Positions 45,304 through 45,457 of a stretch of 64,000 nt of DNA are shown here, piece after piece. Under the pieces are notes generated by a model. It had not been told where the DNA came from. It saw only the letters and a list, made by a program, of their open reading frames with translations, and did not search any database. This DNA is from Zymobacter sp. IVIA_12111.31 C1 (GTDB lineage Bacteria; Pseudomonadota; Gammaproteobacteria; Pseudomonadales; Halomonadaceae), in the NCBI RefSeq assembly GCF_047495495.1, contig NZ_CP179930.1:1595077-1659076 (forward strand), read 5' to 3'. Position 1 is the first letter of the stretch. The number at the start of each line of letters is the position of its first letter. Position numbers and translations under genes: made by a program.

Positions 45304-45457
45304 GCCAGAAGCCAGAAGCCAGAAGCCAGAAGCCAGAAGCCAGAAGCCAGAAGCCAGAAGCCAGAAGCCAGAAGCCAGAAGCCAGAAGCCAGAAGCCAGA
45401 AGCCAGAAGCCAGAAGCCAGAAGCCAGAAGCCAGAAGCCAGAAGCCAGAAGCCAGAA
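45304..45457. repeat. Heptanucleotide microsatellite (GCCAGAA), 22 perfect tandem copies, intergenic
   Basis: Direct reading gives 154 bp = 22 x 7 with no interruptions; generates the artefactual ORF 45205..45594 with a 7-aa period EARSQKP. Confidence 0.95.

Follow-up and report, generated by a model that had tools for sequence, protein, structure and literature searches.

A perfect GCCAGAA heptanucleotide array of varying length between a condensation-domain gene and an HsvA-like amidinotransferase gene in Zymobacter

The window, a 64-kb stretch of DNA from Zymobacter sp. IVIA_12111.31 C1 analyzed here at its full length, holds a long heptanucleotide repeat in a 685-bp intergenic region flanked by genes on the plus strand. 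Upstream of the repeat lies a co-oriented three-gene module, which begins with a sulfotransferase gene (41524–42477), continues with an MFS transporter gene (42501–43772; protein WP_414499349.1), and ends with a gene for a condensation-domain protein, a PapA-like acyltransferase (43812–45226). The ORF at 44018–45226 within this last gene matched Pfam PF00668 (E = 1e-13) and is the same as the 402-aa condensation protein of IVIA_12111.31 C1 at NCBI. Downstream of the repeat lie a gene for an HsvA-like amidinotransferase (45912–47012; protein WP_414499351.1), whose product matched PDB entry 5wpi, the structure of Erwinia HsvA, with a phmmer E-value of 5e-204, and a gene for an ATP-grasp-like (HsvB-like) protein (47066–48322), reported as the co-transcribed partner of the amidinotransferase gene. 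The cluster mates of the window MFS and amidinotransferase proteins came from Z. palmae and Zymobacter sp. IVIA_5232.4 C2. Both the condensation and the amidinotransferase labels had been given in an earlier note made from the letters of the window, and the Pfam and structure matches uphold them.

The trehalose synthesis genes otsA and otsB adjoin the upstream module, and the whole region (38849–45226) is similar in arrangement to the genes for mycobacterial sulfolipid, a sulfated acyl-trehalose. Homologues of the C-domain protein at roughly 50% identity were present in Xanthomonas sacchari, Pectobacterium actinidiae, Variovorax, and Ensifer, and a Bradyrhizobium homologue was named trehalose mycolipenoyltransferase by JGI. 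The module has a GC content of 62–63%, versus 55–58% otherwise, and a GC trough at 41000–41499 (37%, versus 55–63% around it) falls in the divergent otsB/sulfotransferase intergenic region, where it would fit a promoter region or the edge of a module. The three-gene module is also present in Lonsdalea quercina, with proteins that are ~50% identical; there, it ends at the condensation gene and is followed by a convergent gene, and no tandem repeat is found.

The condensation gene is intact, at 471 aa, in Z. palmae, in IVIA_5232.4, and in a MAG (GCA_964410615.1, loci L001/L126). In the window, a poly-C run inside the gene (43984–43992) is nine residues long (C9), and the gene appears as two ORFs, 43812–44183 and 44018–45226. 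The otherwise identical MAG has C10 and a whole condensation gene, while Z. palmae and IVIA_5232.4 carry interrupted versions of the run, ACGCCACCACCT and ACACCCCCTCCT. The window C9 may be a sequencing error in a homopolymer or a true frameshift/phase-off allele, and the run is a candidate switch that is better placed than the heptamer tract.

The downstream pair has differing upstream neighbors across taxa: an FMN oxidoreductase gene for an 82%-identical amidinotransferase homologue, AdoMet decarboxylase and spermidine synthase genes in Pectobacterium, and a MASE2 cyclase gene in Pseudomonas. The pair therefore behaves as an independent unit, and the homologous operons in other genera do not carry such a repeat. 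The locus of the 82%-identical homologue (L122) comes from the same metagenome as one of the scaffolds described below (L131) and has a 100-N gap (1288–1387) in its upstream intergenic region; the edges of that gap are not repeat sequence. An 11-bp segment, GCCAACGACCG, at 47360–47370 of the window is missing from the MAG, where the ATP-grasp gene falls into two parts of 136 aa and 297 aa. Over ~9 kb, the window and the MAG differ by indels only, with zero base substitutions.

The repeat itself reads directly as 22 exact GCCAGAA units at 45304–45457 (154 bp). TRF extended these to a perfect period-7 array of 22.6 copies at 45301–45458 on the plus strand (158 bp, 100% matches, 0 indels, score 316), and every other array that it reported in the window had 3.1 copies or fewer; GCCAGAA occurs as a single array within the 64 kb. 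A two-unit GCCAGAA probe matched the window at 21 overlapping sites, whereas 100 dinucleotide-preserving shuffles led to an expectation of 0.00. The array begins 74 nt after the condensation-domain stop codon (TGA, 45224–45226), across a poorly conserved spacer (45227–45300) in which no terminator-like structure was found, and ends 453 nt before the amidinotransferase ATG at 45912. The earlier note had described the perfect 22-copy tract and placed it just past the condensation stop and about 450 bp before the amidinotransferase start, and these measurements agree with it.

Perfect arrays of the same unit occupy the orthologous position in two further complete genomes, with 18.6 copies (130 bp) in Zymobacter sp. 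IVIA_5232.4 (CP179928.1, locus L125) and 17.9 copies (125 bp) in Z. palmae (AP018933.1, locus L123). In the alignment of the three genomes, all arrays end at the same right boundary, and the window and IVIA_5232.4 arrays differ by exactly four units. Three short-read or metagenome assemblies are interrupted inside the array, where the loci show either 100-N scaffold gaps within it (the MAG, with 8.9 copies resolved beside the gap, and an ENA scaffold, L131, with 8.9 copies, 100 N, and 8.6 copies) or contigs that begin within it (an ENA contig with at least 17.1 copies, L132, and a Logan contig, L124). Five of six assemblies have at least 17 copies (resolved values of 17.9, 18.6, and 22.6; lower bounds of 17.1 and 17.4), and the sixth, the MAG, resolves only the 8.9 copies next to its gap. 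In JGI metagenomes, the pattern of the array's right boundary gave no match and hence no further alleles. A comparison of copy number among isolates had been proposed in advance as a check, and these three complete genomes supply it.

Across 11 kb, identity to the window is 97.8% for IVIA_5232.4 and 92.7% for Z. palmae, and the non-repeat intergenic sequence is 96.7%, 91.0%, and 90.3% identical in the three genome pairs. Each resolved array is nevertheless perfect, although its unique flanks are just 90–97% identical. The probability of 125 aligned bases without any difference at 9% divergence is ~1e-5, which argues that the arrays are continuously homogenized; such homogenization marks a tandem repeat in which slippage is active. 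Because the array is perfect despite its diverged flanks and differs in length among genomes, it has the properties of an actively slipping VNTR, and the earlier view of the tract as a slippage-prone hotspot stands. Just 3′ of the main array, Z. palmae also has another short heptamer array, (GGTGAAA)x3, at 4571–4591 of its locus (equivalent to window positions ~45488–45503), where the window has ~1.5 copies.

The GCCAGAA repeat is stop-free in all six frames, so ORFs of 66–147 codons cross the tract. The flanking frames joined by the repeat differ among the three genomes, and the array lengths (158, 130, and 125 bp) are not confined to multiples of 3. One of these ORFs, of 129 aa with an EARSQKP repeat (45205–45594), passes through the terminator hairpins described below and had no Pfam match, and no gene was called at the site in four annotated assemblies; the ORF had been taken beforehand for an artefact of the DNA repeat, and we concur. 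As no real ORF contains the tract, there is no reading frame to shift.

Several conserved elements separate the array from the amidinotransferase gene, all read on the plus strand. A hairpin with a 9-bp stem, GCATATTCC-CCAC-GGGGTATGC (45508–45529), has all pairs kept in 2–3 of the three genomes. An intrinsic-terminator-like hairpin, CCGCCTTTC-CTGTT-GAAAGGCGG followed by GAATTTTTC (45579–45611), begins 120 nt 3′ of the array; its 9-bp GC-rich stem (hairpin at 45579–45601, MFE −15.2 kcal/mol) is invariant in all three genomes, and a T run comes after it. Beyond these, a 15-nt motif, TTTACAAGTGATAAC (45785–45799), lies 127 nt before the amidinotransferase ATG and about 330 nt from the array. The motif is identical in the three Zymobacter genomes and is found at −124 in the 82%-identical homologue; it is absent 5′ of the Pectobacterium and Pseudomonas homologues. 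Because it is kept in the 82%-identical homologue despite a different upstream gene, the control region of the downstream operon likely lies at ~45785–45830, and TTTACAAGTGATAAC is a candidate promoter (−35 region) or operator for that operon. A simple scan for sigma-70-type sites alone gave no promoter-like site on the plus strand in 44900–46100, and the sole site on the minus strand (45700–45672) is not conserved in Z. palmae. Rfam gave no match at the gathering threshold in the window, with two chance snoRNA matches (E above 2) in 45150–46000, and on this result a known RNA family, riboswitch, or leader was rejected.

Taken with the genome comparisons, this layout makes it probable, in our judgment, that the array is a hypervariable intergenic VNTR of the Zymobacter lineage, most plausibly as part of the upstream operon's 3′ trailer, and that its variation is neutral or weakly modulatory. 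From what is known of SSRs, replication slippage, in which tandem units re-anneal out of register, would add or remove whole 7-bp units, and the same turnover would keep the array free of point differences. Neither DNA strand of the array is predicted to form a stable fold. Structure-driven instability was rejected on that basis, and simple slippage of register is enough without hairpins; only the antisense RNA would form a hairpin, predicted to be long and G-U-rich (−50.3 kcal/mol, z = −3.3). Transcripts of the sulfotransferase-MFS-acyltransferase operon would probably carry the tract in their 3′ trailer, as (GCCAGAA)n RNA without structure; we infer both this 3′-trailer assignment and the position of the promoter downstream. 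Changes in length would leave reading frames and core-promoter geometry unaltered: the tract is 5′ of the terminator-like hairpin and ~330 nt from TTTACAAGTGATAAC, so core promoter spacing should be unaffected. With neither a frame shift nor a change at the core promoter, the variation should be neutral or at most weakly modulatory rather than an on/off switch.

The earlier note had proposed such a switch. It held that gain or loss of a unit would shift the frame and alter promoter-to-gene spacing in 7-bp steps, and that the tract was a candidate switch for phase variation, of the kind seen at contingency loci. Contingency loci are usually described in host-adapted pathogens. Their hallmarks are a long, perfect SSR capable of slipped-strand mispairing, a repeat number that is polymorphic among strains, a location within a real ORF or in or next to a core promoter or 5′ leader, and, as repeat number changes, frequent reversible switches in expression or phenotype, with mixed lengths in one culture. 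The GCCAGAA array is a long, perfect SSR of this sort, and its number varies among the three complete genomes; its position does not support the switch, as the ORFs that cross it are unconserved and without a family match, and the putative promoter lies beyond the terminator-like hairpin. The frame and spacing arguments fall on the same grounds. A graded effect on the expression of either flanking operon may exist, but nothing in the analysis argues for it; repeat tracts far upstream can still modulate expression in some systems. For a bacterial VNTR free to drift, at least 17 copies in five of six assemblies is a narrow range when the flanks have diverged by up to 9%, and selection on length is possible. 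This narrow range keeps two functional readings alive.

The first, which follows the idea of the earlier note, is that the repeat acts as a rheostat for the HsvA/HsvB-like operon. Repeat number would tune transcription by altering how far, or in what phase, an upstream element stands from the promoter, or the tract would lie in a long 5′ leader. We regard this as unlikely. The closest precedent is in Haemophilus influenzae, where hmw1A and hmw2A carry 13–38 copies of a 7-bp TGAAAGA unit ~70–106 bp before the start codon and the repeat modulates expression (Dawid et al. 1999, as summarized in PMC2651432). The Zymobacter array shares the 7-bp unit, a copy number in double digits and within the same range, strain-to-strain variation, and a position 5′ of a co-oriented gene, and it sits in a long intergenic region. 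The hmw repeats, however, are inside the promoter or leader and are experimentally tied to expression level, whereas the GCCAGAA tract is 453 nt from the ATG rather than ~100 bp before it, with the terminator-like hairpin and the second conserved hairpin in between. Also weighing against a rheostat, TTTACAAGTGATAAC at −127 marks a proximal control region that is common to a homologue lacking this upstream region, the plus strand has no promoter-like site flanking the tract, and the operons of other genera do without the repeat.

The second functional reading, to which we give an equally low probability, is that the array serves as a 3′-UTR element of the upstream operon, with unstructured (GCCAGAA)n RNA forming a binding platform whose copy number would tune transcript stability or read-through into the downstream operon. 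Candidate partners would be an RNA-binding protein, Rho loading onto the regularly spaced CC dimers, or RNase access. Consistent with this, terminator-like structure is found after the tract and not between it and the condensation stop, the sense RNA is predicted to form next to no pairs (none in the centroid structure), and the copy number stays at 17 or above in the five assemblies just mentioned. Against it, the unit holds no known motif (no CsrA GGA, no continuous Hfq ARN tract, and as much C as G, so that it is not rut-like), Rfam offers no match, and the orthologous module in Lonsdalea works without such a tract.

A more elaborate version, slightly less probable again, would make the array a selected, length-maintained element, acting either as a 3′-UTR RNA platform or as a tunable insulator of read-through from the putative sulfated acyl-trehalose module into the HsvA/HsvB-like one. 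With the C9/C10 run of the acyltransferase gene added, the locus would act as a contingency system at two levels, for a metabolite that is secreted or at the surface. The stop-free unit does let ORFs cross the tract, but that it codes for a repeat protein, either the 129-aa EARSQKP ORF or a minus-strand 84-aa FWLLASG ORF, is highly improbable and was rejected, since the joined frames are unconserved, without a family match or a gene call. An assembly or sequencing artefact has a comparably negligible chance: repeats this long do assemble poorly, and two scaffolds have 100-N gaps, but five other independent assemblies have the array at the orthologous site, and site, unit, and right boundary agree in all six, three of them complete.

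As a slipping intergenic VNTR, the array has close relatives among the long SSRs (LSSRs) of bacteria. Long SSRs are generally depleted in bacteria (PMC12699852), and heptanucleotides are reported to be the most abundant class of them in many bacterial genomes, for which the length of DNA touching the polymerase is one suggested cause (summarized in PMC4679880 and PMC4692102). Examples with units of 5–11 nt include Xanthomonas GGGAATC, Nostoc GGGGAYT, the tandem heptanucleotides of Calothrix PCC 7601, and Beggiatoaceae TAACTGA (PMC4692102, PMC4679880); the Xanthomonas and Nostoc heptamers are mainly intergenic, often between co-oriented genes, with position kept, length varying, and no proven function (PMC4692102). 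The Zymobacter array likewise consists of head-to-tail 7-nt direct repeats in non-coding DNA between co-oriented genes, keeps its orthologous position while varying in length among related genomes, and has no established function, with polymerase slippage as the proposed origin. The LSSR families are dispersed, with tens to hundreds of copies per genome of a genus-typical unit; one GCCAGAA array is seen in the 64 kb of the window and, at 18–23 perfect copies, it is much longer than most arrays of those families. GCCAGAA, unlike those families, has no G-runs, and therefore no G-quadruplex is possible. The tract fits the intergenic heptanucleotide LSSR kind.

VNTR loci serve in the MLVA typing of bacteria, and the present locus resembles those in being a short-unit, non-coding tandem array with conserved flanks and strain copy-number differences, presumed to be near-neutral, though here the locus is known from three resolved alleles only. 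If it is only a VNTR, it provides a ready typing marker for Zymobacter strains and accounts for the recurring gaps and contig breaks at this site in short-read assemblies. It also offers a clean case for the question of why heptanucleotides abound in bacterial intergenic DNA, having kept its position and remained perfect in three diverged genomes at lengths of 125–158 bp. Should it prove true that repeat number tunes either module, SSR control of a secondary-metabolite or glycolipid locus would extend to a gammaproteobacterium that is free-living and plant-associated, beyond the host-adapted pathogens noted above.

The GCCAGAA unit is also found well beyond Zymobacter. A scan of 185,579 species genomes for at least four tandem units gave at least 119 loci. 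Among the matches listed are members of the Acidobacteriota, Planctomycetota, Verrucomicrobiota, Saccharibacteria, and cyanobacteria, as well as isolates of Pseudomonas syringae (GAW0119), Vibrio, Thalassolituus, Paraburkholderia, and Streptomyces; the arrays in these matches have a median of 4.9 copies and a maximum of 16.6, and are shorter than that of the window. By crude ORF calls among the listed matches, there was no orientation bias relative to genes (the four intergenic neighbor classes held 19, 16, 13, and 12 cases) and no position bias, with 32 of the 63 tandem-gene cases nearer the upstream stop codon. None of the 119 listed loci in other genomes with four or more units shares the window flanks, and an origin by a mobile element or shared flank was rejected; a plasmid origin was likewise rejected, as megablast against PLSDB gave no match. 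The same listed loci hold ~120 further heptamer arrays of other units, from which it follows that the source genomes are generally heptamer-rich. The lack of shared flanks and the heptamer-rich backgrounds suggest that the GCCAGAA arrays elsewhere arose by separate slippage events rather than as a mobile family. More than 119 occurrences of one unit among ~1,200 heptamer classes is not obviously unusual, a reading drawn from the number of classes rather than from a control unit. A literature search for the GCCAGAA unit returned two chance primer matches only.

Some uncultured genomes of the Acidobacteriota, Planctomycetota, Verrucomicrobiota, and Saccharibacteria carry GCCAGAA arrays at many loci alongside many other heptamer arrays. 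Examples are Thermoanaerobaculia S6_bin.91 (L002, L005, L022, L052, L067, L092, L107, and L108) and Acidobacteriota MFD04944 (L012, L015, L045, L065, and L082). Such heptamer-rich genomes may merit separate study; in the DNA retrieved for GCCAGAA-bearing loci, period-7 arrays occurred at roughly one per 3 kb.
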